Assembly: GCA_016875475.1 (NCBI GenBank)
Contig: VGRB01000001.1
Location: 1-48,220 of the forward strand
DNA: 48,220 nt
DNA from: Deltaproteobacteria bacterium
Lineage (GTDB): Bacteria; Myxococcota_A; UBA9042; DTJE01
Direction of reading: 5' to 3'
The translations under genes and the position numbers were made by a program. Each line of letters opens with the position of its first letter. Position 1 is the stretch's first letter. Shown piece by piece: positions 28,131 to 47,989 of this stretch. The notes under the pieces are model-generated. The model was not told where the DNA came from and did not search any database. It saw only the letters and a program-made list of their open reading frames with translations.

Positions 28131-28147
28131 GCTCCGCGGTCGGGCCG

Positions 28148-28972: not shown

Positions 28973-28983
28973 GGCATCGACTC

Positions 28984-29373
28984 CTACAGACCGAAGTAGA
29001 GTTCGAGCCACTTGGGGAGGTGTCGGAACTCAACCGCCTTCCCCGTGGACAGCAGGAAGGCCACCATGTCCTTGGTGAAGCCTGCCCCTTCAAAGACGAC
29101 GAGCCCGCGAATGGGCCAACCCTTCATGTCCTCGATGGTCGCCGGGATCTTCTCTTGAGCGGTTCCTGGCTCCGCTTGGTACTTGCATTCGATCCCGAGA
29201 GTCAAGCGGGTCTTTGGGTCTCGCGCAACCACGTCGATCTGTCGCCGGGCGCCCCACAGGCGCCGTCCCACCTCGACCTCGGTCTCCGCCGCCAAGCCCA
29301 ACTCCCGGGCCAACGCGGCTACCCGGTCCCGAAGGTTTGTTCCACCTCGCACCGCCCGTGCCCTGCCCGGCAT
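28984..29373 (-). CDS. small PD-(D/E)xK nuclease-fold protein, putative restriction endonuclease partner
   Basis: Internal ATG at 29373 with GGAGGAGG upstream. 129 aa. D...E-x-K pattern (RQIDVVARD...LGIECKYQ). Sits immediately upstream of the methyltransferase on the same strand. The endonuclease role is inferred from context only. Confidence 0.55.
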   Translation of the reverse strand: MPGRARAVRGGTNLRDRVAALARELGLAAETEVEVGRRLWGARRQIDVVARDPKTRLTLGIECKYQAEPGTAQEKIPATIEDMKGWPIRGLVVFEGAGFTKDMVAFLLSTGKAVEFRHLPKWLELYFGL

Positions 29374-29431
29374 TGCTCCTCCTCCCGCACGGACGTCGAA
29401 TCGTACCCGAGCGGCCTCGAGTTGGGAATCT

Positions 29432-29575
29432 GGCGGCGGGCAGGGGGGCGAGCCGCGCCCCCCCTTCCAAACGATGCCCCTGGGGCCTGTCGGGCCGAGA
29501 AGGTGGGGTACGTGTCTCGACGGGAGTCGTTCGGGACCGCCTGCCATTTGGGCCGGGCGACAGCGCGGAATGCTC
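29432..29575 (+). repeat. ~145-bp GC-rich intergenic repeat, copy A
   Basis: Aligns end to end with the reverse complement of 43367-43511. Identical blocks: ggcggcgggcaggggggcgagccgcg, cgatgcccct, ggggtacg, gtcgttcgggaccgcctgcc, gcgacagcgcggaatgctc. Confidence 0.85.
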
Positions 29576-29953
29576 GGTCGGACGCAGCGGTGGCCGGTAG
29601 TCGCCGGCGGCTGTCGTCGGACGTGGTGCCCCGCAGGTTACGGGAAGCTATCCGTAACCGCCGGTTCTCTGCGTCCATCGCCAGCGACTCGACGGAAGGG
29701 GTCAGTTCCGGCGCGGTCGGGAGCGTGATCGGGGGGGCGCGCGGTCGGCTTCGCGCCCAGATCCACGAGGAGCAGCACCGGAAGGCGCTGCGGCCGGTGG
29801 GCCTGCCGGCTGGCCTCAGCCTTGGGGAAAGGGGAAGTCTCGCCGCGTGTCCGGGAGGCAGGCTGCGACAGGCCTGTGGCGCCGACTCGGAACTCGCCCC
29901 CCGACTACCGGTCAGCGCAGCGGCCGGACGGTCGGACGGCAGGGCGTCGGAAG

Positions 29954-30088
29954 GGCGGGTACCCGTACGTCCCGCTCTCCGCGTCCTCGTACTTCACCTC
30001 GTACACCGCGGACGGGTTCGGGCCGGAGGAGCAGGCGCGGCTCCGGGACGTTGCGCGCGACCTGAAGGCCCGGGGCGTCGCGGTGCTG
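29954..30088 (+). pseudogene. remnant of a second Dam-family methyltransferase (C-terminal fragment)
   Basis: The frame of ORF 29822..30145 reads GGYPYVPLSASSYFTSYTADGFGPEEQARLRDVARDLKARGVAVL. This parallels DPPYVPLSRTSSFTAYAQGGFAMPDQERLARVFAELASRRVFVML of the intact gene at 28148-28972. No N-terminal motifs are found upstream in any frame. Confidence 0.55.
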
Positions 30089-30179
30089 CCGTCACCGGTT
30101 CGCGCCACGGCAGCGAGCTTGGCTCCCCCGCGCGCGTTCCACTAGGATTCCTCCCGGGTCGATCCGTTCGCGGGGCAGC

Positions 30180-33100
30180 ATGATGGCGGTGATTCGCAGC
30201 GTGTCCCTCCTTCTCCTCGCGCTCGCGCTCGTGCCCGCGCTCGCGGCGTGCGGCGGGGGCACGTCGTCCGGGACCCCGGACCAGGACCCGGGCGCCCTGC
30301 CGGAGGCCGGGTGGACCGACGGGGGTGATCCTTCGGACGGCGCCGACGCGGAAGGTGCCGCCGGGGACGATTCCGCGGACGCGGGCACGATCCCCTGCTC
30401 GATCGACGACGACTGCGCGCCGCTCGCGGAGAGGCTCGCGGCGTGCCGCGTTCCGCGGTGCGGGCGCTCCGGGACCTGCGAGGCGGTGCCTGCCGGGGAC
30501 GGCTCGCCGTGCGGCGACGCGGAGCCCTGCCGGCCGGACGGGCTGTGCGTGTCGGGCGCCTGCATGGGCCGCGCGAAGGACTGCGACGACCACAACCCCT
30601 GCACCGACGACACGTGCGAGCCGGGCGTCGGGTGCCGGAACGCCCCGAACCGCCGTCCGTGCGACGACGGCAACCCATGTACCTCCGACGACGTGTGCGC
30701 GGACGGGTCGTGCGGGGGCCACAACGAGTGCCAGTGCGGGGGGGACGCGGAGTGCGCGGCCCACGAGGACCAGAACCGCTGCAACGGCACGCTCCGGTGC
30801 TCGAACGGCCTGTGCGAGGTGGACCCGGCCACGGTCGTCGTCTGCGACCCGCGGGCGCCCGGCGCCTGCCGCGTCCCGGCGTGCGACCCCCTCACCGGCG
30901 CGTGCGTCGAGGCGGACGTCCCGGACGGGCGGCCGTGCGACGACCTCGACGCGTGCACGGTCGGCGACGCCTGTCTCGGCGGCGCGTGCGTCGCGCTCGC
31001 CACGATCCACTGCGACGACAACAACCCCTGCACGAACGACGGCTGCGATCCCTCGGGCGGATGCGTGCGGACGCCGCGCGCCGGGGACTGCGACGACGGG
31101 AACGCGTGCACGCTCGACGACCGCTGCGACGCCTACGGCAAGTGCGTGGGGGTCCCGACCCCGGAGTGCGGTTGTCTCGACACGGCAGGGTGCGCCCCGC
31201 TCGAGGACGGGGACCGGTGCAACGGGACGCTGGCCTGCGTGAACCACGCGTGCGTGGTGGCACCGGCCACGGTCGTCGCGTGCGACACCTCGGGGGACGG
31301 CCCGTGCTCGCGCACGGCGTGCGTGCCGGCGACCGGCGAGTGCGCCGGGACCCCGGCGCCCGAGGGGCGGCCCTGCGACGACGGGAACGCGTGCAGCAGC
31401 GCCTCGGCGTGCCAGGCGGGCGAGTGCGTGCCGCTGGCGACGCTCTCGTGCGACGACGGGAACGTGTGCACCGGGGACTCCTGCGACCCGGGGCAGGGAT
31501 GCCGGCACGACCCGGTGGCGGGCGCCTGCGACGACGGCGACCCGTGCACCGGGCCGGACAACTGCGCCTGGGGCACCTGCAATCCGCTCGTCCGGGGGTG
31601 CGACGACCTCGATCCGTGCACGACGGACGTGTGCGACCCGGTCGAAGGGTGCGTGCACCAGGCGATCACGGGCGCCTGCGAGGACGGCAACGCGTGCACC
31701 GCCATGGAGACGTGCGTCGACGGCAAGTGCGTGGGCGGCGTCCCGGTCTCCTGCGACGACGGGAACCCGTGCACGGACGACCCCTGCGACCCCGCGGGGG
31801 GGTGCCGGCTCCACCCGCCGAACACCGTCCCGTGCGACGACGGCGACCCGTGTACCGGGGACGAGCACTGCTCCCAGGGCGCCTGCGTGCCGGGCGGCCC
31901 GCGGAACTGCGACGACGGCGACCCGTGTACGGCCGAGAGGTGCGACCCGGGCGTCGGGTGCGTCCGCTGGGGCAGCGGCGCGGCCTGCGACGACGGGAAT
32001 CCGTGCTCGCTCGACGACGCGTGCGCGGACGGCGGGTGTGCGCCCGGCGAGGCTACGACCTGCGACGACGGCAACCCGTGCACGACCGACTCCTGCGACG
32101 CGGTCGCGGGGTGCGTGCACGCGGACGCGCCGCCCGGGACCGGGTGCGACGACGGCGACGCGTGTACCGGGGAGGACGTCTGCCTGCCCGGCGGCAAGTG
32201 CCGTGGAACGTTCGTCGTTTGCGACGACGGGAACCCCTGCACGCTCGACCGGTGCGTCCCCGCGATCGGGTGCGTGGCCGACGACCTCGGTCACCGGTGC
32301 GACGACGGCTCCCCGTGCACCGAGGGCGACCGCTGCCGTGACGGGACGTGCGAGGGCGTGCCGAAGGGGTGCGACGACGGGAACCCGTGTACCGCCGACC
32401 GCTGCGACCCCGTCGTGGGTTGCGTGTGGGAGCCGCGGGCCGCGGCGTGCGACGACGGGAACGCCTGCACCGCCGGCGACGCCTGCCAGGGCTACGTCTG
32501 CCTGCCGGGACCGCGGCCGGACTGCGACGACCTGGACCCCTGCACGCTCGACCGGTGCCTTCCGGCCGCCGGCTGCCGGAACGACCGGCTCCTCGGGATT
32601 CCTTGCGACGACGGGGACCCGTGCACCGTCAAGGACCGCTGCCTCGCGACCGGGTGCGGGGGCGGCAGGCAGGCGTGCGACGACGGCAACCCGTGCACCA
32701 CGGACCTGTGCCTCCCCTACGGCGGGTGCGTGCACGAGCCCTCGGCCGCCGGGCCCTGCGACGACGGGAGCGTCTGCACGACCGGCGACGCCTGCGAGGC
32801 GGGCCGGTGTCGTGGCGTCGCGACGATCGACTGCTCGGACCAGGACCAGTGCACGCTCGACTGGTGCGACCCGGTCGCGGGCTGCACGCACAAGCCCCGC
32901 GGCTACTTCCCGTGCAGCGACGGCTCCGCGTGCACGATCGGCGACCATTGCGACCCGGACGGCAGGTGTACGGGCGCACCCCTGGCCTGCGACGACCGGA
33001 ACGACTGCACCGCGGACGGGTGCGACGCCGCCAAGGGGTGCTTCGCGACCCCGCTGCCCGGGAATGCGTGCGACGACGGCGACCCGTGCTCCGAATCCGA

Positions 33101-35891
33101 CGCCTGCGGCGAGGACGGGGTCTGCCGCGGCGAGCCCCGGGACTGCGACGACGGCAGGCTCTGCACGAGGGACTTCTGCGATCCGGGCGCGGCGTCGGGG
33201 TGCCGCCGCGAGTTCAACTACCTGCCGTGCGACGACGGCGACGCGTGCACCGTGAACGACCGGTGCGGCGGCGGCGAGTGCCGCGGCTACCCCGGCCCGG
33301 GCTGCGACGACGGCAACCCGTGCACCGACGACGCGTGCGATCCGGCCGGCGGGTGCCGCCACGACCCGAACACGCGAGACTGCGACGACGGGGACGCCTG
33401 CACGTCGGGGGACAAGTGCGCGGGCGGCCGGTGCGCCGGGTGGCCGGTCCCCTGCGGCGACGAGAACCCCTGCACGCACGACGCGTGCGACCCGCGCATG
33501 GGCTGCACCAGGATCCCGAAGAGCGGGGCGTCGTGCGCGTCCGGGGACCGGTGCCTCGCGGACGCGCAGTGCAGCGGGTACGAGTGCGTCGGCACCCAGC
33601 GCGCGTGCGACGACGACAACCCGTGTACCAAGGACTCCTGCCTGTACCCCGGCGAGTGCGTGTTCCTCCCGCTCACCGGCGTGTCGTGCGGCTTCGGCGG
33701 CACCTGCGAGGAGGGGCATTGCGTGGGGGTCCCGGACTGCGCCGACGGCAACCCCTGCACGTTCGATCGCTTCAACGGCGAGACCTGCGACCACCTGCCG
33801 CGCACGGGGCCGTGCGACGACGGGGACGCGTGCACGTCGCACGACTCCTGCATCGACGGCGCGTGCCTGGGCCGGCCGCGGAACTGCGACGACCATGACC
33901 CGTGCACGCTGGACGACTGCGACCCGAAGGCCGGGTGCACGTTCGCGGCGGTCGACGGCCTCGACTGCGACGACGGCAACCCGTGTACGGACGGGGACGC
34001 GTGCTCCGCCGGCACGTGCGGGGGCGTCCGGAAGCCGTGCGACGACGACAACCCGTGCACGGCCGACCGGTGCGACGTCTTCGCCGAGCCCGGCATCGAC
34101 GCCTGCGTCCACGAGCCGATCCAGATGGCCTGCGACGACGGCGACCCGTGCACGGACGGGGACTTCTGCTTCGACGCGGTGTGCCGGCCGGGCGCGATCC
34201 GGGACTGCCACGACGACAACCCGTGCACGGTCGAGCTGTGCGACCCGGTCCTCGGGTGCGTCCGGGAGGCGGCCTCGGGCGGGGGCGACGACGGGAACGC
34301 CTGCACGGCCGGCGACCGGTGCTCCGGCGAGGCGTGCACCGGCGAGCCGATCTCCTGCGACGACGGCAACCCGTGCACGGCCGACTGGTGCGACAGGGCC
34401 TGGGGATGCCGGAGTTCGCCGGTGCCCGGCGCGCCGTGCCGCGACTCGAACGCCTGCACCGCGGACGACCGGTGCACGTCTTCCGGCGCCTGCTCCGGGT
34501 CGCCGGTCGTGTGCGACGACGGGAATGCCTGCACTGACGACTCGTGCTCGCCCGCCGCGGGGTGCGTCTCGACGCCGAACTCGCTCCCGTGCGACGACCG
34601 CAACGAGTGCACGTCGAACGACCGCTGCGAGGGCGGGGGCTGCCTGGGCGGCGAGCCGGTCAGGTGCGAGGACGGGAACGTCTGCACCGAGGACCGGTGC
34701 GACCCCGTCTGGGGGTGCACGTTCAAGCCGGCAGATCGGCCCTGCGAGGACGGGAACCCGTGTACGGCCGGGGACCGGTGCCTGGGGGGGACGTGCGTGC
34801 CCGGCGGCATCATCGCCTGCAACGACGCCAACCCCTGCACGACCGACTCCTGCCAGTCGGGCAAGGGGTGCGTGTTCCACCTGACCGCCGGGCAGTGCGA
34901 CGACGGCGACGCGTGCACCGAGGGAGACCGGTGCCTGGACGGCCAGTGCCGGGGCACGGACCCGAAGGACTGCAGCGACGACAACCCCTGCACCGTCGAG
35001 CGCTGCCTGCCGGGGTCGGGCTGCGTATGGGAGCCCGTCGACCACCCGTGCGACGACAAGGACCCGTGCACGCTCGGAGATGGTTGCTCCGGGGGGGGGT
35101 GCCGGTCCGGGCCGCCCCTGGTCTGCGACGACGCCAATCCCTGCACCGCGGACGCCTGCACCGGCGGGCAGTGCGTGTTCCAGCCCGAGCCGGGTCCGGT
35201 GCCGTGCGAGGACGGGAACGCCTGCACGACCGGCGATTTCTGCCAGGCGGGATACTGCACCCCCGGCCGGCCTGTCCGGTGCGGCGACGAGATCGACCCC
35301 TGCGTGCGCGGCTCCTGTTCGCCGGCCCTGGGGTGCGTCGAGTCGTTCACGACCCTGCCCTGCGACGACCACGACCCGTGCACGCGTGGCGAGGGCTGCC
35401 GCGACGGCGCGTGTTCGGGCGGCGCGGCCGTTTCCTGCGACGACGGCGACCCGTGTACGGACGACCTCTGCCGGCCGGGCGAAGGGTGCGAGCACCTGCC
35501 CGCGCACAACGTGGCGAAGTGCGACGACGGCGACCCGTGCACCGGCGGGGACGTGTGTACCGGCGCGGGATGCGCCGGGACGTGGGTCGTGGACTGCGAC
35601 GACCACGCGTACTGCACGATCGATCGCTGCGATCCCGGCGTCGGCTGCGTCCACGAGCCCCGTCCGACCGGGGACGGTTGCGACGATTCCGACGAGTGCA
35701 CGTCGGACGACCGGTGCGCCGACGGGCGTTGCGCAGGGACGGCCGTGGACTGCGACGACGGCAACCCGTGCACGTTCGACGGGTGCGAGCGCTCGTCGGG
35801 CTGCCTCCACCGGCCGAACGCGCTCCCGTGTCCGGGAGGGCGATGCGAGGCCGGGGAGTGCAGGCCCGTGCCCGGGGCGGAGGTCCGGTGA
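30180..35891 (+). CDS. giant (1903 aa) lipoprotein built from tandem Cys-rich 'CDDGNPCTxDxC' repeats (Dictyostelium-repeat-like)
   Basis: Signal and lipobox (PALAAC-GGG). After about 130 aa it is almost entirely a bipartite 45-50 aa unit: CDDGNPCTxDxCDPxxGCxHxP...CDDGDACTxGDxCxxGxCxG. The third-position GC bias supports this frame over the long antisense ORFs. Confidence 0.9.
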   Translation: MMAVIRSVSLLLLALALVPALAACGGGTSSGTPDQDPGALPEAGWTDGGDPSDGADAEGAAGDDSADAGTIPCSIDDDCAPLAERLAACRVPRCGRSGTCEAVPAGDGSPCGDAEPCRPDGLCVSGACMGRAKDCDDHNPCTDDTCEPGVGCRNAPNRRPCDDGNPCTSDDVCADGSCGGHNECQCGGDAECAAHEDQNRCNGTLRCSNGLCEVDPATVVVCDPRAPGACRVPACDPLTGACVEADVPDGRPCDDLDACTVGDACLGGACVALATIHCDDNNPCTNDGCDPSGGCVRTPRAGDCDDGNACTLDDRCDAYGKCVGVPTPECGCLDTAGCAPLEDGDRCNGTLACVNHACVVAPATVVACDTSGDGPCSRTACVPATGECAGTPAPEGRPCDDGNACSSASACQAGECVPLATLSCDDGNVCTGDSCDPGQGCRHDPVAGACDDGDPCTGPDNCAWGTCNPLVRGCDDLDPCTTDVCDPVEGCVHQAITGACEDGNACTAMETCVDGKCVGGVPVSCDDGNPCTDDPCDPAGGCRLHPPNTVPCDDGDPCTGDEHCSQGACVPGGPRNCDDGDPCTAERCDPGVGCVRWGSGAACDDGNPCSLDDACADGGCAPGEATTCDDGNPCTTDSCDAVAGCVHADAPPGTGCDDGDACTGEDVCLPGGKCRGTFVVCDDGNPCTLDRCVPAIGCVADDLGHRCDDGSPCTEGDRCRDGTCEGVPKGCDDGNPCTADRCDPVVGCVWEPRAAACDDGNACTAGDACQGYVCLPGPRPDCDDLDPCTLDRCLPAAGCRNDRLLGIPCDDGDPCTVKDRCLATGCGGGRQACDDGNPCTTDLCLPYGGCVHEPSAAGPCDDGSVCTTGDACEAGRCRGVATIDCSDQDQCTLDWCDPVAGCTHKPRGYFPCSDGSACTIGDHCDPDGRCTGAPLACDDRNDCTADGCDAAKGCFATPLPGNACDDGDPCSESDACGEDGVCRGEPRDCDDGRLCTRDFCDPGAASGCRREFNYLPCDDGDACTVNDRCGGGECRGYPGPGCDDGNPCTDDACDPAGGCRHDPNTRDCDDGDACTSGDKCAGGRCAGWPVPCGDENPCTHDACDPRMGCTRIPKSGASCASGDRCLADAQCSGYECVGTQRACDDDNPCTKDSCLYPGECVFLPLTGVSCGFGGTCEEGHCVGVPDCADGNPCTFDRFNGETCDHLPRTGPCDDGDACTSHDSCIDGACLGRPRNCDDHDPCTLDDCDPKAGCTFAAVDGLDCDDGNPCTDGDACSAGTCGGVRKPCDDDNPCTADRCDVFAEPGIDACVHEPIQMACDDGDPCTDGDFCFDAVCRPGAIRDCHDDNPCTVELCDPVLGCVREAASGGGDDGNACTAGDRCSGEACTGEPISCDDGNPCTADWCDRAWGCRSSPVPGAPCRDSNACTADDRCTSSGACSGSPVVCDDGNACTDDSCSPAAGCVSTPNSLPCDDRNECTSNDRCEGGGCLGGEPVRCEDGNVCTEDRCDPVWGCTFKPADRPCEDGNPCTAGDRCLGGTCVPGGIIACNDANPCTTDSCQSGKGCVFHLTAGQCDDGDACTEGDRCLDGQCRGTDPKDCSDDNPCTVERCLPGSGCVWEPVDHPCDDKDPCTLGDGCSGGGCRSGPPLVCDDANPCTADACTGGQCVFQPEPGPVPCEDGNACTTGDFCQAGYCTPGRPVRCGDEIDPCVRGSCSPALGCVESFTTLPCDDHDPCTRGEGCRDGACSGGAAVSCDDGDPCTDDLCRPGEGCEHLPAHNVAKCDDGDPCTGGDVCTGAGCAGTWVVDCDDHAYCTIDRCDPGVGCVHEPRPTGDGCDDSDECTSDDRCADGRCAGTAVDCDDGNPCTFDGCERSSGCLHRPNALPCPGGRCEAGECRPVPGAEVR

Positions 35892-35917
35892 GGGGCAGCG
35901 GTCAAGGAGGCGCTGTC

Positions 35918-36613
35918 GTGACGCGCGCCGCGACCGGTCGTATCGCGTGGCCGATCGTGCTCGAGTGGGGCGCGAAGCTGCTCGCGCTCGTGCTGCTCGG
36001 CGGCATCATCTTCCTGGAGGTCGTCTCGATCCGGGCGTGGCTCGGGGTCGCGGCGGTGTCGCCCTGGCGCGGCTGGACCCGGATCGTGTCCGACGGGAGC
36101 CTCGCGGTGTTCGCGGCGATCGTGCTCGCCGTCTACGTGGTCCGGCGGCCCGCGGTCCGGAAGGCGGGCGGGGTGCTGCCGCGGGTGGCGGCCGTGGCGG
36201 GTCCGATCATCCTGCCGGTGGCGCTCTTCTTCGTGAAGCCCGACGCGACCCCGGCGCGGTTCGTCGCCGGGACGGTCCTGTCGGGCGTCGGGCACGTCCT
36301 CTCGATCGCGGCCATCGCGTGGCTCGGCCGGTCCTTCAGCGTGATGCCGGAAGCCAGGAAACTGGTGACGTCGGGACCTTACGCGATCGTGAGGCACCCG
36401 CTGTACCTGTCCGAGGCGTGCGCGTCGGTCGGGCTCGTGCTCCTGCGGTTCTCTTGGCTGTCCGTCGCGGCGTTCGCGGTCTGGACCGCGGCGCAGTTCG
36501 CGCGCGCGAGGTACGAGGAGCGTGTGCTGTCCGCCGAGTTCCCGGAATACGCCGCCTACGCCGCCCGCACCCCGATGCTCCTCCCCTGGCCCCGGCGTCG
36601 CCGCCGAGCCTGA
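35918..36613 (+). CDS. ICMT/PEMT-family integral-membrane methyltransferase
   Basis: GTG 35918 lies 7 nt after AAGGAGG. 231 aa, about 5 TM segments. C-terminal signature LVTSGPYAIVRHPLYLSE...EERVLSAEFPEY is typical of isoprenylcysteine carboxyl / phospholipid methyltransferases. Confidence 0.85.
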   Translation: MTRAATGRIAWPIVLEWGAKLLALVLLGGIIFLEVVSIRAWLGVAAVSPWRGWTRIVSDGSLAVFAAIVLAVYVVRRPAVRKAGGVLPRVAAVAGPIILPVALFFVKPDATPARFVAGTVLSGVGHVLSIAAIAWLGRSFSVMPEARKLVTSGPYAIVRHPLYLSEACASVGLVLLRFSWLSVAAFAVWTAAQFARARYEERVLSAEFPEYAAYAARTPMLLPWPRRRRRA

Positions 36614-36667
36614 CCGGCCGGAAACCCGGTACAATCACCCGCGGACCCCGAGCGGGGGAGAGGCGGG

Positions 36668-39511
36668 ATGCGGGCGCGGGAACGGGTTCGGATCGTCGTC
36701 GTCGCGGCGTTCCTCGCGGCCTGTGCGGCCTGCGGCGGGGGCGGGAGCGGGCCGGCCGGCGGTGACGCGGCCGGCGACGGCGCCGCGGTCGAGAACGGTC
36801 CCGGCGACGATGGGGCCGAGGCCGGGCCGGACGGGGGAGACCCCTCCCCGGCCGAGATCGAGGTCGGCCCCGACGGTTCGGACCCCGGCGATCCGGACGA
36901 CGCGGTGCCGCCTGACGCGGAGCCGGACGGCTCGAATCCCCCGGAATCCGCGCCGGACGCGGACGAGGGGGGCGGCGGGGACGTGCCTGAGGACGACGCG
37001 ACGCCGGACGCCGGCGCGGACGATCCGGGCGACGACCCGGGCGGCGACGCGACCCCCGAGGCGGACGAAGGCGCCGAGGCGGACGCCGGCTGCGACGGCC
37101 CGGCGTGCCTGCCGCCCTGTCCGGACGACGGGCTCGAGTGTACGGCCGAGGTGCGCGACCCGGCGACGCATGAGTGCGTCCCGTTCGTGCTGCCCGGCTA
37201 CTGCCTGATCGGCGGGGTCTGCCGGTTCAACCTCGAGCCGGACCCGGACCACCCGTGCCTGTTCTGCGACCCCGGGCAGAGCCTGGACTCGTTCTCTCCT
37301 CACGCCGGGCTCCCGTGCGACGACGGCGAGCCCTGTACCGAGGGCGACTCGTGCGACGCGGCCGGCGCCTGCGACCCAGGCGCGCCCGCGGACTGCAACG
37401 ACGGGAACGCCTGCACGAACGACAAGTGCGTGAACGGAAAGGGCTGCGAGCACACCGCGAACAAGAACGCGTGCGACGACGGGCAGGGCGTGTGCACCTA
37501 CCAGAAGCAGTGCTCGGGCGGGAAGTGCATCGGCAAGAAGATCCCGTGCACGGACGCGGACCCGTGTACCGCGGAGGCGTGCGACCCGGTGAAGGGCTGC
37601 GTCTTCCCGATCGCGATCGGCGCGCCGTGCAGCGACGCCATGCCGTGCACCACCGGCGACGCTTGCGGCGCGGACGGGAAGTGCCGCGGGACCGCGGTGG
37701 TCTGCGACGACGGCAACCAGTGCACCGCGGACTCGTGCAACCCGACGACCGGCCAGTGCATGCACCAGCCGACCTTCGGGGGGTGCGACGACGGCAACGC
37801 GTGCACCACGAACGACCACTGCGAGGCCGGGGCGAAGTGCGTGGGGTACGACCTGCTGTGCGAGGATGGGAACCCCTGCACCGACGACTCGTGCGAGCCC
37901 GGGACCGGCTGCACGTTCAGGCCGAACTGGGACACCTGCGACGACGGCGACCCGTGCACGGAGGACGACGTGTGCGGCGAAGGCCGTTGCGACGGGGCGG
38001 AGCGGAACTGCGCGGACTCGAACCTCTGCACGATCGACACGTGCGACCCGGTCGCCGGCTGCCTGCACGCGATCAACTGGGGGCCGTGCGAGGACGGGAA
38101 CCTGTGCACCTCGGGCGAGACGTGCTCGACCGGGTTCTGCGCGGGCGGCGTGAACGTGGACTGCGACGACGGCGAGACGTGTACCTACGACAAGTGCGAC
38201 CCCGCGGTCGGGTGCGTGCACGAGCCCGTGATCGAGCCGTGCGACGACATGGACCCGTGCACGCAGGACGACTTCTGCTCGGGAGGGCAGTGCGCCGGGA
38301 CCACGATCGACTGCGACGACGGCGTGGCCTGCACGATCGACACGTGCGGCGCCGGCGGGACCTGCACGCACGCGATCGTGCCGGACGGAGGCGCGTGCGA
38401 GGACGGCAACAAGTGCCTCGCCGACCGGAAGTGCCAGGGCGCGGTCTGCGTCGGCAAGTCCCTCGACTGCGACGACGGGAGCCCGTGCACCACGGACAAG
38501 TGCTTCCCGGAGACGGGCTGCCGGCACGAGCCGAAGTCCGTCGGGAACTGCAACGACGGGTCCGCGTGCACGCTCGGCGACCGCTGCGTGGCTGGCGAGT
38601 GCGTCGGGACCAGCCTGCCGTGCTCGGACGGCAACGCCTGCACCGACGACACCTGCGACGAGTCGGGGGGGTGCGTCTTCCCGCACAACAGCGCGCCCTG
38701 CGACGACAAGGACCCGTGTACCGGCCCGGACACCTGCTCGGGCGGCGGGTGTACCAGCCGGTCCCTGTTCACCGACCCGGTCGCGAAGACCGCCCTGCTG
38801 TCGTACGGCACGTCCGGCAACCCCGGGCAGGGACTGAACGTGGACAACAACGGCTCCACGTGCGCGCCCAAGGGCACGTGCGCCCAGGGAATCGACAACG
38901 CGTTCGCGAAGCTCGCATGGCTGTTCAACCCCGAGCTGACCAGGGCGGTCGCGGAGGGCTCCGCCGGCATCGTGATCGAGCCCGAGGCCGGGCCCGCCGG
39001 CGTCGCCCTGAACCTGTTCTGGGCGCGGGTCGTCGCGCCGCCGGGTTGCGACCCGGCCGGGGCGGGCTGCACGTACCGGGTCTATGCCTCGGACGTCGTG
39101 GACGAGTGCTCGCCGAAGTACCGGTTCGACAACGCGATCCTCGACGGCACGCACCTGACCGCGGGAGGCAAGGCCTACGACGCGCCGTTCTACGTGGTGA
39201 TCGGCGCGCTCCGCCTGCCCGTGACGCTGCACTGGGCCGCGCTCGACGCGTCCGTGTCGGTGTCGAACGGCACGTTCGTCTCCGGGTCGGGCGTGCTCGC
39301 CGGCGCCTTGTACCGCCAGGAGCTGATCGACGCCGTGTCCGGCGCGCCCGCGGACGCCTTCCCGCCGCCGTACACGCGCGACGTCCTGGTCCAGTACCTC
39401 ACCAAGTACGTGGTCCCGGACCTCGACGTGAGCGGCGACGGGATGAAGGACGCGATCTCGGTCGGGATGCCGTTCACGCTGGTGACCGGGAAGGTCGCGG
39501 GGTTCCAGTAG
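36668..39511 (+). CDS. 947-aa lipoprotein: acidic low-complexity spacer, 'CDDGNPCT' Cys-rich repeats, Cys-poor C-terminal domain
   Basis: Lipobox FLAACAAC-GGG. About 130 aa rich in D/P/G/E/A. About 25 half-repeats of the same type as the giant protein. Then about 250 aa with no repeats (ALLSYGTSGNPGQGLNVDNNG...GKVAGFQ). Confidence 0.9.
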   Translation: MRARERVRIVVVAAFLAACAACGGGGSGPAGGDAAGDGAAVENGPGDDGAEAGPDGGDPSPAEIEVGPDGSDPGDPDDAVPPDAEPDGSNPPESAPDADEGGGGDVPEDDATPDAGADDPGDDPGGDATPEADEGAEADAGCDGPACLPPCPDDGLECTAEVRDPATHECVPFVLPGYCLIGGVCRFNLEPDPDHPCLFCDPGQSLDSFSPHAGLPCDDGEPCTEGDSCDAAGACDPGAPADCNDGNACTNDKCVNGKGCEHTANKNACDDGQGVCTYQKQCSGGKCIGKKIPCTDADPCTAEACDPVKGCVFPIAIGAPCSDAMPCTTGDACGADGKCRGTAVVCDDGNQCTADSCNPTTGQCMHQPTFGGCDDGNACTTNDHCEAGAKCVGYDLLCEDGNPCTDDSCEPGTGCTFRPNWDTCDDGDPCTEDDVCGEGRCDGAERNCADSNLCTIDTCDPVAGCLHAINWGPCEDGNLCTSGETCSTGFCAGGVNVDCDDGETCTYDKCDPAVGCVHEPVIEPCDDMDPCTQDDFCSGGQCAGTTIDCDDGVACTIDTCGAGGTCTHAIVPDGGACEDGNKCLADRKCQGAVCVGKSLDCDDGSPCTTDKCFPETGCRHEPKSVGNCNDGSACTLGDRCVAGECVGTSLPCSDGNACTDDTCDESGGCVFPHNSAPCDDKDPCTGPDTCSGGGCTSRSLFTDPVAKTALLSYGTSGNPGQGLNVDNNGSTCAPKGTCAQGIDNAFAKLAWLFNPELTRAVAEGSAGIVIEPEAGPAGVALNLFWARVVAPPGCDPAGAGCTYRVYASDVVDECSPKYRFDNAILDGTHLTAGGKAYDAPFYVVIGALRLPVTLHWAALDASVSVSNGTFVSGSGVLAGALYRQELIDAVSGAPADAFPPPYTRDVLVQYLTKYVVPDLDVSGDGMKDAISVGMPFTLVTGKVAGFQ

Positions 39512-39539
39512 AGCATTCCGCGCTGTCGCCCGTCCCGCC
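39511..39539 (-). repeat. truncated third copy of the intergenic repeat (terminal block only)
   Basis: gagcattccgcgctgtcgc (39511-39529) is identical to 43367-43385. Partial similarity continues for about 10 more nt. It fills the whole 33-bp gap between the convergent stops at 39511 and 39545. Confidence 0.6.
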
Positions 39540-39544
39540 GGCGC

Positions 39545-40702
39545 CTACTCGTCCACGTTGACGATCGATTCCAGCAGCGCGGTCCCCTTGATGGCCACGG
39601 GCGCGGCGCCCTCGACCGCGAGCGTCAGCTCCGGCTCGCCCTCCAGGCGGTAGGTGATCGGGTTGCCCGCCACCATCGACGCGATCTGGCCCTGCGCCCA
39701 GCCGAGGCGCTCCATCACGGCCTCGCGGTCGTGCAGCCGCTTCCCCGCGATCGCGCCCGCGAGCCCCACCTTGCCCTTCAGCGCGACGCCGTAGCGCGCG
39801 TCGTAGTGGTGCCCCTTCGGGTCGGCCTTCCGGTCGCCGGGCTCGAACGCGGCCTCGTCGGTCACCTCCAGCACCCCGTTCCGACCGGCCACGATGGTGC
39901 GGGTGAACACCTCCCCCCCGTGCTTCCTGTTCATCCGCACCGCGAAGAACGCGACCGAGTGGTCCGGCGCGAACACGCGGCTGACCCACCACCGGGCCGT
40001 GAAGTCGGACGCGAGCTTGTTCTGGATCATGTGGTCCAGGTACAGGTCGCCCTTGACGCGCTGCCGGTCCCTGCCGACCACCAGCTCGCCTTCGAACTCC
40101 GCGCGCGGCACGTGGTAGAAGACGGTCATCCACGCGGACCTGTCGCTCGTCAGGTAGGTGCGGCCGTCGTGCATCTTCACGCCGTCCGTCCACGCCCGGC
40201 CCTTGATCGACAGCCGGAACTCCGCGTGATCGACCTTGAGCGTCACGTCGCGGCCGGAGAGCCCGAGCCGGTCCGGCCCGATCTCGATGATCCCGGCCTC
40301 CGCGTCCTCGCCGAAATCGTCGGTCGACTCCTCCCAGGAGAAGTACTGCGCGTCCTTCCCCGGCGCGGTGTAGGACACGTTCACCCCGGCGCGGCCCGAC
40401 ACCACCCCGATGTTGGTGTAGAGGAACGTGACGTAGATCGTGTGGCCGGCCGCGGTGCGCATGACCGCGGACCACGACTCCGTGTAGTACTTGTCGTCGT
40501 GCGGGTGCCGGAGCCAGTCCCCCGGCACGGTCGGGCTCACGCGCGGCCCGGCCCGGTCGACCGACACCTTCGCATACGCGGGTGCGCCCGCCCCCGCTGC
40601 CGCGACCCACGCCGCGATCGCCACGAGCCGCGCCGCGATCCCCCCCAACACCCGAGCCTTCGTCGACATGCCGTTCACCCCGCAAGGACCGGCGGGAATC
40701 AT
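39545..40702 (-). CDS. secreted protein of unknown function
   Basis: ATG 40702 lies 8 nt after GGAGG; ATG 40669 is the alternative. Signal peptide ...AAWVAAAGAGAPAYA. The mature part is beta-rich with no motif I can name. Sits 32 nt downstream of hrpB on the same strand. Confidence 0.75.
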   Translation of the reverse strand: MIPAGPCGVNGMSTKARVLGGIAARLVAIAAWVAAAGAGAPAYAKVSVDRAGPRVSPTVPGDWLRHPHDDKYYTESWSAVMRTAAGHTIYVTFLYTNIGVVSGRAGVNVSYTAPGKDAQYFSWEESTDDFGEDAEAGIIEIGPDRLGLSGRDVTLKVDHAEFRLSIKGRAWTDGVKMHDGRTYLTSDRSAWMTVFYHVPRAEFEGELVVGRDRQRVKGDLYLDHMIQNKLASDFTARWWVSRVFAPDHSVAFFAVRMNRKHGGEVFTRTIVAGRNGVLEVTDEAAFEPGDRKADPKGHHYDARYGVALKGKVGLAGAIAGKRLHDREAVMERLGWAQGQIASMVAGNPITYRLEGEPELTLAVEGAAPVAIKGTALLESIVNVDE

Positions 40703-40734
40703 ATCCCCATCCTCCCCGCCGCACCCCCGCGGGG

Positions 40735-43344
40735 TCACCGGGTCCTCCCCGGCGCGGGCGGGCGTGCGTTCGCCGGGTCGTCCGGCCACGTGTGGCGGGG
40801 GTAGCGGCGTCTCAGCTCGCGGGCCAGCGCCGGGTAGTGGCGTTCCCAGAACCCGGCGAGGTCCGTGGTCACCTGGACGTCCCGGCCCGCGGGCGAACGC
40901 AGGTGCAGCACGACCGGAATTTCCCCCCCGAGGACCGCGGGACCGCGCGCCATCCCGAAGAAGTCCTGGAGGCGCGACCCCGCGGATGGCGGCCGCCCCT
41001 CCTCGTACTCGAGCCGGAGCCTCCGGCCCCCCGGAAGCGCGATCGACGGGGGCGCAAGCTCGGCCAGCGCGCGCCGCTGCTCGCGCGTCAGGACCGCCTC
41101 CAGGGCCGCCACCACGCCCGCGGCGCGGACCTCCGCGAGCGATCGGCGGCCCCGGCACAGGCCTGCGATCACCCCCCCGACCTGCCCCGGATCGAACGCG
41201 GGGAGCCCGAGGTCCGGCCGGTGCGTGCGCAGGAACGCCACCCGGGCCAGGAGCAGGCCCGGGTCCTCCCCCTCGGAGGCGAGCGCGTCGATGCCGCGCT
41301 TCCGCGCCGCGTCCGCCAGCAGGGCCGCGACCGCCTCCGCGTCCGGGGCCGGGTCGGGCGTCTCCTCCAGGACCAGCCCGTCGAACAGGACCCTCCGGAC
41401 CGCCTCGACCCGCCCGGCGGATGTGTTGAAGCGAAGCTCCGAGACCTCGCGCACCTGGTCGAGGAAGAGGTCGAGCAGCCAGTCCTCCTCGACCACCGCC
41501 GCGGCCCGCACCAGCAGCGCAGCGCCGTGCGTGCCCTGCCGCTCGGCCGCGTCCGCGACCACGAGCAGGCGGCCTTCCGGCAGGAGGGCGCCCCCCGGCA
41601 GGTCCGCGACGCCGCCCGCGGCGAGCGCGAACTCCGAGGCGCCCGGCCTGCCGCGCGCGGCCGCCCGGGTCCGTCCCACCCGGTCCGGGAAGCCCGCGAG
41701 CAGCGCCTTCGTCAGCGCGGCGCGCCGGTCCGGCGGGACGGACGGGCCGTGGCGGGGCGTCCTCGTCGCGTGCACCGCCTCGCGCGCGGTCTTCAGGATC
41801 TGGTCCCGGGCCCGCAGCACCGCCGCGACCGACGGCGGGTCGAGCCCGAGCCGCCGCAGTTCGTGGTCCGCACGCGGGGTCGCGCGCAGGTCCGCGAGCA
41901 CGTCGACCGCCTCGATCGGGTCGAGGAACCCGTGCGGGGACAGGGACTCTCCGGCCGCCTCCGATCCCCCCGCGCCGAGCCCGACGGACCGCGCCGACCG
42001 CCGCACGTCGCGCTCCGCGAGCACGGCCGCGAGCATGCAGCCGTCCTCGGCGAGCCCGCCCGCGGCCGCCTCGACCACGATGCGCGCGAGCCGCGGGTGT
42101 ACCGGGATCCGCAGCATCGCGCGGCCGGCGGCCGACAACCCCCCCGAGTCATCGAGCGCGCCGAGCCTGGAGAGCAGGGCCTCCGCGGCCGGGATCGCCT
42201 GCCGCGGGGGCGCGTCCAGCCATTCGATCGCGGCCGGGTCGAGGCCCATCCCGCGGACCAGCAGCACGGTCTCGGCGAGGTCCGACCGCACGACCTCGGG
42301 CGGGTCGCGCTCGGGCCGCCCGTCCGCGTCCGCGCGCGTGAACAGCCTGAGGCAGCGCCCCGGCCGCGTGCGCCCGGCGCGTCCGGCGCGCTGCGCGATC
42401 GACGCGCGCGACGCCCGGACCACCCGGAGCGTCTTGAGCCCCGACCACGGCGAGTGTGCCGCCTGCCTCGCGAGGCCGGTGTCGATGACCGTGGTGACCC
42501 CGTCGATGGTCACGGACGTCTCGGCGACGTTCGTGGACAGGATCAGGCGCGGCCGGTCCGACGGCGCGACGGCCCGGTCCTGCTCCGCGGCCGGGAGGTC
42601 CCCGTGGAGCGCGACCAGCAGGAGCCCGTGGCGCCTCGCCGCCTCCTCGCACGCGTCGCGGGCCTGACGGATCTCTGCCGCGCCCGGCAGGAAGACCAGG
42701 CAGTCGCCCGGCGGGCCCTTCAGCGCCGCGCGCTCGACCGCGGACGCGACCTGGATCGCGAGCGGCCGGTCGTCGGGCCTCGCCAGGTGCTCGACCTCCA
42801 CGTCGAACCTGCGGCCCTCGGCAACCACCACGGCCGCGTCCAGGAACCCCGCGACCCCGGCCGCGTCGAGCGTCGCGGACATCGCGACGAGCCGCAGGTC
42901 CGGCCTCGTGGTCCGCCTCAGGCGCCGGAGCAGCGCGACCGCGAGGTCCGCGTCCAGGCTCCGCTCGTGGAACTCGTCGAGCACGACCGCGGCCACGCCG
43001 CGAAGGTCCGGGTCCGACGCCAGGCGCCGGACCAGCACGCCCTCGGTCACGAACCACAGGCGGGTCGCGCGGCCGCCGCACTCCTCGAACCGCACCCGGT
43101 ACCCGACCGAGCGGCCGACCGGCTCGCCGGCCTCCTCGGCCACGCGCCGGGCCGCGACGCGCGCCGCGATCCGCCTCGGCTCCAGCACGACCACGTCACC
43201 GTCGGCGCCCGCGAGGACGGCGGGCGGCACGCGCGTGGTCTTGCCCGACCCCGGCGGCGCCTGCACCACGGCCGCGCCGCGCGCGCGCAGGGCCGAGGCC
43301 ACTTCCGGCAGGACCTCGTCGACGGGCAGCGGGATTCGTTCCAC
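40735..43344 (-). CDS. hrpB: ATP-dependent DEAH-box RNA helicase HrpB
   Basis: Walker A APPGSGKTT, DEFHER, SAT, the TNVAETSVTIDG and QRAGRAGR motifs, and the C-terminal HrpB domain. GTG 43344 is the first start after the in-frame junk of ORF 40735..44904. 869 aa. Confidence 0.92.
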   Translation of the reverse strand: MERIPLPVDEVLPEVASALRARGAAVVQAPPGSGKTTRVPPAVLAGADGDVVVLEPRRIAARVAARRVAEEAGEPVGRSVGYRVRFEECGGRATRLWFVTEGVLVRRLASDPDLRGVAAVVLDEFHERSLDADLAVALLRRLRRTTRPDLRLVAMSATLDAAGVAGFLDAAVVVAEGRRFDVEVEHLARPDDRPLAIQVASAVERAALKGPPGDCLVFLPGAAEIRQARDACEEAARRHGLLLVALHGDLPAAEQDRAVAPSDRPRLILSTNVAETSVTIDGVTTVIDTGLARQAAHSPWSGLKTLRVVRASRASIAQRAGRAGRTRPGRCLRLFTRADADGRPERDPPEVVRSDLAETVLLVRGMGLDPAAIEWLDAPPRQAIPAAEALLSRLGALDDSGGLSAAGRAMLRIPVHPRLARIVVEAAAGGLAEDGCMLAAVLAERDVRRSARSVGLGAGGSEAAGESLSPHGFLDPIEAVDVLADLRATPRADHELRRLGLDPPSVAAVLRARDQILKTAREAVHATRTPRHGPSVPPDRRAALTKALLAGFPDRVGRTRAAARGRPGASEFALAAGGVADLPGGALLPEGRLLVVADAAERQGTHGAALLVRAAAVVEEDWLLDLFLDQVREVSELRFNTSAGRVEAVRRVLFDGLVLEETPDPAPDAEAVAALLADAARKRGIDALASEGEDPGLLLARVAFLRTHRPDLGLPAFDPGQVGGVIAGLCRGRRSLAEVRAAGVVAALEAVLTREQRRALAELAPPSIALPGGRRLRLEYEEGRPPSAGSRLQDFFGMARGPAVLGGEIPVVLHLRSPAGRDVQVTTDLAGFWERHYPALARELRRRYPRHTWPDDPANARPPAPGRTR

Positions 43345-43366
43345 GGCCGGGATTCTATCCCGTCGT

Positions 43367-43511
43367 GAGCATTCCGCGCTGTCGCGCGGCCCGCACGGCA
43401 GGCGGTCCCGAACGACAGCCGTCCGGATTCGTACCCCAAGCCCCGGCCCCCGGGCAGGCCCGGAGGGGCATCGATCGGAGGGGGACGCGGCTCGCCCCCC
43501 TGCCCGCCGCC
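43367..43511 (-). repeat. ~145-bp GC-rich intergenic repeat, copy B (inverted relative to copy A)
   Basis: Its reverse complement aligns with 29432-29575 (see copy A). It occupies most of the divergent hrpB / SGNH intergenic region. Confidence 0.85.
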
Positions 43512-43581
43512 CCGCGGTGCGGGGCGCGGGCCACCCCCCTTGCGCGGCCGCCTTGCGGTCGCTCGTCGTACAATCCCGTCG

Positions 43582-45039
43582 ATGCGAACGCGGACGCGCC
43601 GTCTCGTCGTGCTCCTGCTGGCCGCGGCCTCGCCCCTGCTCCTCGAAGCGGGGTGGCGGGCGTGGGTCGTCGCGTCCGCGCCCGGCGCCGAGCCGGGTGC
43701 ATTCACGGTCCTCGCGGTCGGCGGCTCGGGCATGCGCGGGGCGTACGTGGAGCCGCGGATGTCGATCCCCAGCACGGTCGAGTGGATGCTCGGCGGGAAC
43801 GCGGGCGGGCGGCGGATCGTGACGCACGTGCTCGCGGACCACGGCCACTCGATCTACCCGCAGGCGGTCCTGCTCGAGCGGGCGCTCGCGGGCCGGGGCG
43901 ACGCGGGACCGGGCGTGGTGCTGGTCTATTCGGGCCACAACGAGGGGATCGGGCCGGATGCCGCGGACTCGCCCGCCGGGGGGGCGTCGTTCCTGGAGCG
44001 GGAAGTCGAGTCCCGGTCGTGGCTCGTGCGCGACCTCGCGTTCCTCGCGCGCGAGCGCGGGTGGCTGGACCGCCGCCGCGATCTCCGCACGACGGAGCAC
44101 TGGCTCCGGCGCGTGGCCTGGACCGCGCGCGACCACGGGCTCGTGCCGATCCTCGCGTCCGAGCCGTCGAACGTGGGGGGGATCGAGCCGAACGTGAGGG
44201 AGGACGCGGACGCCGCGGCGGTCCGGGCCGCGGTGGAGTCGGGGGACGAGGAGTCGTGGCTCCGCCGCGCCGGCGATCAAGCCGCAGGGGCGCTGTTCCT
44301 CTACCTCGCGGGCAAGGCGCGGCGGGCGCGGGGGGCCGCGGAGGGCGCGCGGGGGCTCCTGCTCCGGGCGATCGACCGCGACCCGCGCAACCACTTCGGC
44401 CGGGCCACGTCCGCCCAGCACGACCTCGTGCGAAGGGTCGCGGCGGAGGAGGGCGTCCCGCTCGTCGATGCCCCGGCCGTGCTCGCCGCGGCCTCGCCCG
44501 ACGGGATCCCGGACGGCGGCCTGTTCGGGGACGGGCACCACCCGGGTGCCGAGGGGTACCGCCTGATCGCCGCGGCGTTCGCGGCGCGGGTGGCGGAGGT
44601 AGGGGGGGACCCGGCGCCTCCCCGCGCGTCCGCGCCGCTCGTCGAGGTCGAGGCCGCCCTGGGCGTGACGCCGTCCGACCGGCGGGACGCGGCGGTCCGG
44701 TACGGGAGCTGGCTGGTCGCGACCGCGGCCATGCACCCGTGGCCCGACGACCGGCTCGCGCTCGCCGGGACGCGCTTCCGCGAGGCCCTCGACGCGTCGC
44801 CGGACGACCCGTCGGCCCTGCTCGGCGTCGCGATCGCGCAGGCCGGGCGCGCGGGCGGGCTGCTGCGGGACCGCGAGGCGCTCGACGCGCTCCACCGGTG
44901 GCACGTGTTCTACTCGGACCGGTTCTGCGTCCCGCCGGAGGAGCGCGCCGCCGCGATGCGGCGGCTCGGCGAGGCGGGCGCGGACGGGGCGATCCTGGCG
45001 CGGCTCGACGCGTCGAAGGGGGTGGCATGCGGACCCTGA
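43582..45039 (+). CDS. SGNH/GDSL-like hydrolase-fold protein with C-terminal helical repeat region
   Basis: N-terminal hydrophobic segment. Blocks VGGSGMRG (block I-like), YSGHNE (block III-like) and DGHHP (block V DxxH). Start ATG 43582 lies 7 nt after TACAAT; TTG 43540 is the alternative. The family call is tentative. Confidence 0.65.
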   Translation: MRTRTRRLVVLLLAAASPLLLEAGWRAWVVASAPGAEPGAFTVLAVGGSGMRGAYVEPRMSIPSTVEWMLGGNAGGRRIVTHVLADHGHSIYPQAVLLERALAGRGDAGPGVVLVYSGHNEGIGPDAADSPAGGASFLEREVESRSWLVRDLAFLARERGWLDRRRDLRTTEHWLRRVAWTARDHGLVPILASEPSNVGGIEPNVREDADAAAVRAAVESGDEESWLRRAGDQAAGALFLYLAGKARRARGAAEGARGLLLRAIDRDPRNHFGRATSAQHDLVRRVAAEEGVPLVDAPAVLAAASPDGIPDGGLFGDGHHPGAEGYRLIAAAFAARVAEVGGDPAPPRASAPLVEVEAALGVTPSDRRDAAVRYGSWLVATAAMHPWPDDRLALAGTRFREALDASPDDPSALLGVAIAQAGRAGGLLRDREALDALHRWHVFYSDRFCVPPEERAAAMRRLGEAGADGAILARLDASKGVACGP

Positions 45040-47192: not shown

Positions 47193-47232
47193 GAGGGTCA
47201 GTCTCGCGGACCCTGTGAGAGGAGGTGCCCCC

Positions 47233-47979: not shown

Positions 47980-47989
47980 TCCCGCGGCT

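Follow-up and report, generated by a model that had tools for sequence, protein, structure and literature searches.

Repetitive extragenic palindromic sequences (REPs) and REPINs are well-known dispersed hairpin repeats in bacteria (PMC3116915, PMC3337134), a REPIN being formed by two REPs in inverted orientation with a fixed spacing (PMC3337134). Here we describe a non-coding repeat in contig VGRB01000001.1 of a Deltaproteobacteria bacterium (assembly GCA_016875475.1). The window analysed is this entire contig (48,220 bp, 74% G+C). It contains two full-length copies of the repeat, A and B, which lie in opposite orientations and enclose a block of 13.8 kb, together with a shorter copy, C, inside the block.

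Other dispersed repeats of bacteria are equally familiar: bacterial interspersed mosaic elements (BIMEs), BOX elements, enterobacterial repetitive intergenic consensus sequences (ERIC, or intergenic repeat units, IRU), Correia elements and neisserial intergenic mosaic elements (NIMEs). BIMEs are mosaic interspersed elements of enterobacteria, the BOX elements of Streptococcus pneumoniae have the organisation boxA-boxB(n)-boxC and ERIC/IRU sequences are found in enterobacteria. BOX and ERIC elements can alter the expression of their neighbours and are not known to have a transposase of their own. Correia elements carry 26-bp terminal inverted repeats and are flanked by a TA duplication. Descriptions of small dispersed repeats come mostly from cultured Proteobacteria, Firmicutes, Neisseria and mycobacteria. 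The host considered here belongs to an uncultured, deep-branching, high-GC freshwater lineage.

We consider, with moderate confidence, that the repeat is a lineage-specific, non-coding mosaic intergenic element of the REP/BIME/BOX kind, carried by an uncultured high-GC (74%) lineage from Lake Tanganyika. It is multi-copy, modular and non-coding, it is not conserved at orthologous positions, its 5' half has homology in another lineage and some of its helices are maintained. The class of mosaic hairpin repeats is known, whereas this family is itself undescribed (no match of any sort was obtained in the databases searched).

Several Logan assemblies contain the same organism, as does JGI metagenome 3300020603 (Ga0194126, Lake Tanganyika). 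Contigs L006 (Ga0194126_10085095) and L007 (1.1 kb) are from this Lake Tanganyika sample, L017 and L020 are Logan contigs (k=31 assembly) and L026 is a contig of a distant relative (62% GC), which was reached through a paralogue search with a 947-amino acid (aa) Cys-repeat protein encoded in the window. The window and its continuation in L020 together cover about 52 kb of the genome of the organism. Genes were called using a codon-usage model and Pfam (38 window genes were scanned with Pfam), and the chance expectations for exact blocks were obtained from dinucleotide-preserving shuffles.

Comparison with described elements

The likeness to REPs, BIMEs and REPINs lies in non-coding, extragenic, GC-rich imperfect palindromes that are present in multiple copies, are assembled from mosaic modules, are often (here probably) co-transcribed with flanking genes and occur both as solo and as composite units. 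The relative L026 also carries inverted CCCTAC...GTAGGG heads, which recall the GTAG head of REPs. The unit described here is, however, 145-196 nt long with at least five different hairpins, compared with the 20-40-nt palindrome or symmetric doublet of REPs and REPINs. In contrast to systems with a REP-associated tyrosine transposase (RAYT), no RAYT gene was seen in the 52 kb. No reverse-complemented copy of the terminal 19-mer (with up to three mismatches) lies inside the units, as it would in a REPIN doublet. The GTAG head is missing from the copies in the window genome, GTAGGG/CCCTAC being found only in L026.

BOX and ERIC elements are similar in length (100-200 nt), in having optional modules, in their intergenic position, often near gene starts, and in the stable RNA fold predicted if they are co-transcribed. 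Their sequences are unrelated to the present repeat, and their hosts differ greatly in both lineage and base composition. In Neisseria, Correia elements and NIMEs (dRS3/RS) are likewise small dispersed elements in promoter-proximal intergenic regions, and the approximately 20-bp repeat of NIMEs, which occurs both solo and at the edge of larger mosaics, resembles the 19-28-nt 3' module described below. Neither the 26-bp terminal inverted repeats nor the TA duplication of Correia elements was found here.

Finally, miniature inverted-repeat transposable elements (MITEs) and the palindrome-associated transposable elements (PATEs) derived from the IS200/IS605 family share the non-autonomous size and a subterminal hairpin a few nucleotides from a sharp 3' boundary. 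As in the IS200/IS605 type, terminal inverted repeats are absent, and variable flanking sequence comes after a structured segment of about 145 nt. Unlike PATEs and omega-RNA-associated elements, the repeat lacks a conserved 4-5-nt 5'-flank motif (ACGA in copy B, CTCC in L007), tnpA, tnpB and iscB are absent from the window and there is no HEARO or omega-RNA match in Rfam. The 9-bp repeat that flanks copy B would also be atypical for this family.

Copies in the window

The forward strand of the repeat is that which reads GGCGG...GGAATGCTC. Copy A is forward on the plus strand and copies B and C on the minus strand. Bit scores below are from two covariance models (CMs), R1, built from the three full copies (A, B and that of L007), and R2, built from B and L007 only.

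29432..29575, plus strand: copy A, core unit, 144 nt (R1, 150.7 bits)
43367..43511, minus strand: copy B, 145-nt core unit, inverted relative to A (R1, 128.9 bits)
43512..43562, minus strand: 5' module of copy B, 51 nt (R2, 88.9 bits for B, 89.3 bits for L007 and 47.3 bits for L026)
39511..39538, minus strand: copy C, a solo 3' module of 28 nt, GCGGGACGGGCGACAGCGCGGAATGCTC (nhmmer model positions 115-142)

A first-pass annotation of the window had proposed that A and B are similar over their full length, and the two (144 and 145 nt) do align from end to end, with 120 matches, 22 mismatches and 5 gap columns. Identity is 81.6% when all columns are counted and 84.5% when gaps are excluded. All of the identical blocks that it listed were recovered: a 26-mer at the 5' end (GGCGGCGGGCAGGGGGGCGAGCCGCG), CGATGCCCCT (10 nt), TGGGGTACG (9 nt), a 20-mer (GTCGTTCGGGACCGCCTGCC) and the terminal 19-mer (GCGACAGCGCGGAATGCTC). 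Chance is ruled out as an explanation for these shared blocks because, in shuffled versions of the window, 0.00 matches to the 26-mer and 0.05 matches to the 19-mer (up to three mismatches) are expected, while two and three, respectively, were found. The estimated extent of about 145 bp holds for the core but is too short for B, in which the unit runs 51 nt further (43512-43562), this extension being common to B and L007.

The 19-mer recurs at 39511-39529 (minus strand), where, as had been proposed, it fills the gap between two convergent stop codons, and we found that the similarity reaches 28 nt. This is copy C, which sits between the TAG stop of the gene for the 947-aa protein (39509-39511) and the stop of a minus-strand gene (39545-39547).

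The repeat does not encode a conserved protein, in agreement with the first-pass annotation. The insertions and deletions between A and B are 2, 1 and 2 nt, none divisible by three, so that the copies are mutually out of frame. All six reading frames are open across the repeat, which is usual at such a GC content and may mislead annotation. A six-frame translation of the three copies gave no match among 5.8 billion proteins.

Additional copies

Copies were also found outside the pair. A scan of metagenomes with the 19-mer gave 11 matches, of which only L006 and L007, both from the one Lake Tanganyika sample, are related. L007 has a full-length copy at positions 56-197 (89.6% identical to A and 86.9% to B). 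Its flanks are unlike those in the window, and an AAGGAGG-N8-ATG opens a 59-codon membrane-protein ORF 15 nt past its 3' end. L006 has the 3' module alone, in the 60-nt gap of a compact divergent region. L020 matches window positions 43529-48218, runs 2.9 kb beyond the window and ends 28 nt into a fourth copy, D, some 3 kb outside the window. An ATG lies 3 nt from the 3' end of D.

In all, six loci were observed: A to D, L006 and L007. Since the first four share about 52 kb of chromosome, the number of copies in the whole genome may be high. The 3' boundary is sharp at 6/6 loci. CM R1 retrieved no additional copies in a search of about 97 kb of sequence. The exact 19-mer had five matches among the GTDB representatives (one genome per species), all unrelated and attributable to chance. 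Nothing related came from a plasmid collection, searched in distant mode, and scans of viral contigs with different blocks gave chance matches only.

Contig ends provide an independent sign of multiple copies, because a k=31 assembly breaks where a 31-mer has more than one continuation. Three such ends lie inside copies: L017 ends 30 nt into copy A (window position 29461), L020 starts inside the extended copy B (window position 43529) and its other end is in copy D. The repeat thus breaks short-read assemblies of this organism. It could also be used as a strain-typing marker.

Modular organisation

The unit consists, in order, of an optional 51-nt 5' module (hairpin HP0, the G-rich linker GCAAGGGGGGTGG and hairpin HP1), HP2, a series of small central hairpins and a 3' terminal hairpin. 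HP0 of copy B is GCGACCGC-AAG-GCGGCCGC (consensus GCGMCCGC-AAG-GCGGSCGC), HP2 is GGGGGGCG/CGCCCCCC and is located within block 1, and the central hairpins carry the conserved loops CGAUGCCCCU and GGGGUACG. The 3' terminal hairpin, CCGSGC-GACA-GCGCGG, is followed by AATGCTC.

These modules occur in various combinations. Full units are found with the 5' module (B and L007) or without it: copy A consists of block 1 with HP2, the central variable hairpins, block 4, the 3' terminal hairpin and AATGCTC, and lacks the 51 nt. The 28-nt 3' module occurs solo in copy C and L006. The 5' half, including a sequence related to the 51-nt module, occurs solo in L026. The copies are located in intergenic gaps, which they fill nearly completely. 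For example, in the 236-nt gap separating the following two divergent genes, copy B with its extension (43367-43562) leaves free only 22 nt on the hrpB side and 18 nt on the other.

40735..43344, minus strand: hrpB, on the same strand as copy B, whose 3' end precedes the GTG start by 22 nt
43581..45039, plus strand: gene for a signal-peptide protein, divergent from hrpB; 18 nt separate its ATG from extended copy B (5' end)

An attempt to extend the unit to the left, over the -10-like boxes (ATTGTAC/ATCGTAC) of A, B and L006, was rejected since the similarity of these left flanks is not significant (it was reached by 505 and 148 of 2000 shuffles).

The intergenic region at 4403-4506 of L026 is homologous to the 5' half of the unit, with an alignment score reached by 0/2000 shuffles and a CM R2 score of 47.3 bits (E=2e-4). 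It contains, in the same order, HP0, an identical 13-nt linker, HP1 with a 23-nt apical insertion and HP2 (20/21 nt). The 3' half (blocks 2-5) is missing. L026, which carries an orthologue of the 947-aa Cys-repeat protein, also has GC-rich modules of its own, repeated across five intergenic regions in a stretch of 22.7 kb. Among them are the inverted CCCTAC...GTAGGG heads, as well as units in which one C6 run follows two G6 runs. Given these modules and the homologous 5' half, mosaic hairpin repeats seem to be a property of the clade rather than of this single locus, and the partial sharing with a distant relative suggests that they are a persistent feature of it.

Several details of these modules were recorded. 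Sites in L026 include 1188-1422, 4403-4506, 7651-7693 and 12746-12808. A 45-nt unit is duplicated exactly, 112 nt apart, with a third, inverted copy 11 kb away, and a 43-nt unit with CCCTAC...GTAGGG inverted heads is present in two gaps. Two G6 runs followed by one C6 run (AAGGGGGG...AGGGGGG...CCCCCC) occur at window positions 29443-29463, 43480-43500 and 43527-43549 and at L026 12746-12780, that is, alike in the window element (linker and HP2) and in L026 modules that otherwise look unrelated. Such a pattern permits two mutually exclusive hairpins.

Folding and possible transcription

The consensus of the full-length copies (n=3: A, B and L007) folds better on the forward than on the reverse strand (-69.6 versus -56.6 kcal/mol and 49 versus 42 pairs). 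Nearly all of the wobble pairs are G.U on the forward strand, where the reverse strand would give A.C. Among the three copies, four predicted pairs have changed on both sides and are still paired, three of them in central helix 5, which encloses the GGGGUACG loop. Comparison across lineages, read by eye, adds further examples: between the inner stem of HP1 in B and L007 (CGCCCCGC/GCGGGGCG) and that in L026 (CGCCCUAC/GUAGGGUG) there are two compensatory pairs and one G.U, and position 4 of HP0 is C-G in L007, G-C in L026 and an A.C mismatch in B. The hairpins seem to be maintained, probably on the forward strand. This is compatible with either an RNA or a single-stranded DNA intermediate, which these data do not tell apart. 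A CM-fitted alignment gave higher covariation counts; it includes weak, unverified rows and is biased towards the model, and we do not rely on it.

The first-pass annotation had offered a small structured RNA family as one of two identities for the repeat. In this case the forward strand would be the source of a structured RNA (a cis-acting 5' leader or else a small RNA) that regulates the gene on the 3' side, for example by alternative pairing of two G6 runs with a single C6 run. The better forward fold, the G.U bias and the compensatory changes in helix 5, HP0 and HP1 are in keeping with this, as are the perfectly conserved loop-like blocks and the short distances from 3' ends to start codons (22 nt to the GTG of hrpB in B, 15 nt to the ATG after AAGGAGG in L007 and 3 nt in D). 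These distances, however, follow simply from an element that fills short gaps. Moreover, individual copies are no more stable than their dinucleotide shuffles (z = 0.10 and -1.50), any sequence of 74-79% GC folding strongly, and three pairs of the long-range helix are broken in A and B by uncompensated mismatches. The genes downstream are unrelated to one another (they encode a helicase, a Cys-repeat protein, an SGNH-like protein and the 59-aa membrane protein). There are 600 nt between copy A and the next gene, and copy C is placed between convergent stops. Relatives of hrpB (59-63% identical) have upstream gaps of 4-62 nt, too short for the element, and the one of them with DNA available for inspection, contig L019, is without a copy, so the repeat is not a conserved hrpB leader. 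Neither copy region contains a sigma-70 promoter or intrinsic-terminator consensus. An Rfam search, which had been proposed at the outset, matched no family: at the gathering scores of Rfam 15 there was no match in the window, L006, L007 or L020, and at E values up to 10 copy A, L007 and the L026 region gave noise only. The compensatory pairs and the strand bias are what stands of the RNA proposal, and we regard a regulatory RNA as possible but unlikely.

It is also conceivable, though quite unlikely in our opinion, that the repeat is a mobile, modular structured RNA. Its forward transcript would switch the 3' gene by means of two G6 runs competing for one C6, with GGGGUACG and CGAUGCCCCU as conserved loops. 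If so, the 5' half would be an ancient RNA module common to the window organism and L026, and the whole a new RNA family that spreads like a repeat.

An ATG within the terminal GGAATGCTC, which is in frame with the ORFs that follow L007 and D, was considered as a start codon. We regard it as a coincidence: there is no Shine-Dalgarno sequence or -10 box and the frame is closed after five codons in B.

Returning to the mosaic intergenic element that we favour, its forward strand (GGCGG to GGAATGCTC) would most likely be co-transcribed with the neighbouring gene and fold into stable hairpins, and these may influence mRNA stability or translation. If transcribed, the repeat would add a very stable structure of 145-196 nt to the 5' ends of unrelated operons, including that of hrpB.

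Flanking sequences and mode of dispersal

A 9-bp perfect direct repeat, CGACGGGAT, brackets extended copy B. A shared run of at least 9 was reached in 16/5000 shuffles.

43572..43580, minus strand: left member of the 9-bp direct repeat CGACGGGAT, a candidate target-site duplication
43357..43365, minus strand: right member of the 9-bp direct repeat CGACGGGAT, overlapping the TAGAAT box upstream of hrpB

This repeat looks like an insertion footprint. It would be explained if the element were a classical MITE, mobilised with a 9-bp target duplication by a transposase encoded elsewhere. The size, copy number and lack of coding capacity would fit, the segment between the direct repeats begins with TG and ends with CA, and excision of this segment with one 9-mer would leave a gap of about 20-30 nt, similar to the 4-62 nt in hrpB relatives. 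Set against this are the ends of the element: those of extended copy B match at 9/22 positions (by eye), a repeat search found no inverted repeats between unit ends, and the homology between B and L007 begins 9 nt in from the edge of the segment that the direct repeats enclose. In addition, copy A and L006 yielded no flanking direct repeat, no related transposase was seen and, in L007, where the contig end cuts off the left flank, the 4 nt that remain differ from the right flank. We therefore consider a classical MITE improbable. Of the REP/MITE-like identity suggested in the first-pass annotation, the non-coding, intergenic, multi-copy and modular character stands, together with the related modules in relatives, while terminal inverted repeats are absent and a candidate target duplication is limited to B.

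As a mosaic element of the REP/BIME/BOX kind, the repeat would have been spread by insertion or recombination, the driver (a REP-type tyrosine transposase or general recombination) being encoded elsewhere. Several observations weigh against such an assignment. No REP-type or other transposase was seen in the 52 kb of genome, the unit is larger than a REP and has neither the doublet nor, in this genome, the GTAG head. The perfectly conserved 19-26-nt blocks between variable stems suggest selection at the sequence level, which a purely selfish repeat does not require. The direct repeat at B points to cut-and-paste or replicative transposition with target duplication, and this is not produced by REP-type elements. 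Statistics on copy number, orientation and structure are weak with three full-length copies, and the observed covariation was matched by 14/500 column shuffles.

Conservation of exact 19-26-nt blocks at the sequence level could alternatively reflect shared regulatory DNA, either the binding sites of one regulator or a portable promoter placed before several operons of one regulon. Copies A, B and L006 do lie in divergent promoter regions, with the 19-mer alone in the 60-nt region of L006, and neighbouring starts have -10-like boxes at a leaderless-type spacing (TACAAT-N7-ATG and TAGAAT-N7-GTG). However, no sigma-70 consensus is present inside the unit, the similarity of the box-bearing left flanks is not significant, as noted above, and the position of copy C between convergent stops makes no sense for a promoter. 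Readings of the 3' module as a sigma-54 (GG-N10-GC) or extracytoplasmic function (ECF, GGAAT-N18-GTT) promoter were rejected, since by eye the spacings do not fit. A regulatory DNA element is, in our view, distinctly improbable.

Gene context and the enclosed block

The gene context given in the first-pass annotation (a restriction-modification (R-M) cassette and a methyltransferase remnant on either side of copy A, and the hrpB start about 20 nt from copy B) is accurate, the latter distance being 22 nt. The features around copy A are context and not part of the repeat.

28148..29373, minus strand: R-M cassette, on the 5' side of copy A
28148-28972, minus strand: D12 (Dam-type) adenine methyltransferase gene (Pfam)
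28984-29373, minus strand: PD-(D/E)XK nuclease gene (Pfam)
29963-30094, plus strand: 44-codon remnant of a second Dam-type methyltransferase, with 48% identity to residues 188-231 of the intact enzyme

To the right of copy A is a gene-free stretch of about 600 nt, which contains the remnant. There follow, in order, the genes for a 1903-aa Cys-repeat protein, a PEMT/ICMT-like protein, the 947-aa Cys-repeat protein and a 377-aa protein of unknown function, and then hrpB on the minus strand.

The first-pass annotation also raised the possibility that the inverted pair A/B is a recombination substrate, which would invert the 13.8-kb block or mark its insertion junctions. The inverted orientation and exact runs of 26-32 nt would be sufficient for occasional RecA-dependent recombination, and copy A abuts a lower-GC R-M cassette. 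Nevertheless, A and B are not a unique pair. With copies both outside (D and L007) and inside (C) the block, their pairing is incidental and such bracketing is expected by chance from a dispersed repeat. Transposase, integrase and recombinase domains are absent from the 38 window genes (Pfam), and the GC content and codon usage of the block equal those of the rest of the window. GC skew follows the gene strand and is uninformative on inversion. No alternative arrangement was seen, although one would not have been visible in short-read contigs, which break at the repeat. We judge a functional inversion pair highly improbable: the repeat gives no indication that the block is mobile or invertible, and the mosaic element that we prefer would have no dedicated function for it.

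The R-M cassette itself (region 28131-29401) is probably horizontally acquired, judging from its low GC content (0.67-0.69 in 2-kb windows across it versus 0.74 for the whole window) and its weak codon-model scores. The presence of a different Dam-type remnant on the opposite strand across copy A suggests that one R-M or methyltransferase gene was replaced by another at this site. Insertion of copy A into an old methyltransferase gene was rejected, as there is no methyltransferase similarity to the left of the remnant.

Other observations

The two secreted Cys-repeat proteins (1903 aa, 30180-35891; 947 aa, 36668-39511) contain dozens of Cys-rich repeats of about 25 residues (CDDGNPCT), with 21 and 8 stretches, respectively, scored by the Pfam family Dicty_CTDC. 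At the DNA level, these yield many internal repeat families with a period of about 150 nt. No paralogue above 49% identity was found in the same genome, and orthologues of about 900 aa (45-49% identity) are widespread in metagenomes.

In four different sequencing runs, the Logan contigs that carry rplU, rpmA and obg break off at the same place, the 3' end of obg (about window position 77). Past this common break (about 48-77) the window contig continues to position 1, and there is no copy of the repeat there.

Both starts that flank copy B follow a -10-like hexamer at a distance of 7-8 nt with no Shine-Dalgarno sequence (TACAAT-N7-ATG at 43568-43583, plus strand, and TAGAAT-N7-GTG at 43342-43357, minus strand). 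The same is true in L006 at 591-612 (TACAAT-N8-ATG). This suggests that leaderless mRNAs may be common in the organism.

A further region of L006 (approximately 1040-2470) contains a near-consensus promoter, TTGACA-N17-TATTCT, behind an A-rich tract. It is followed by a strongly purine-rich stretch of about 1.35 kb with no Rfam match at E values up to 1 and no ORF that is coding-like under the window codon model. The stretch ends in a canonical hairpin and T-run terminator, and it looks like a long non-coding transcription unit beside the solo 3' module.

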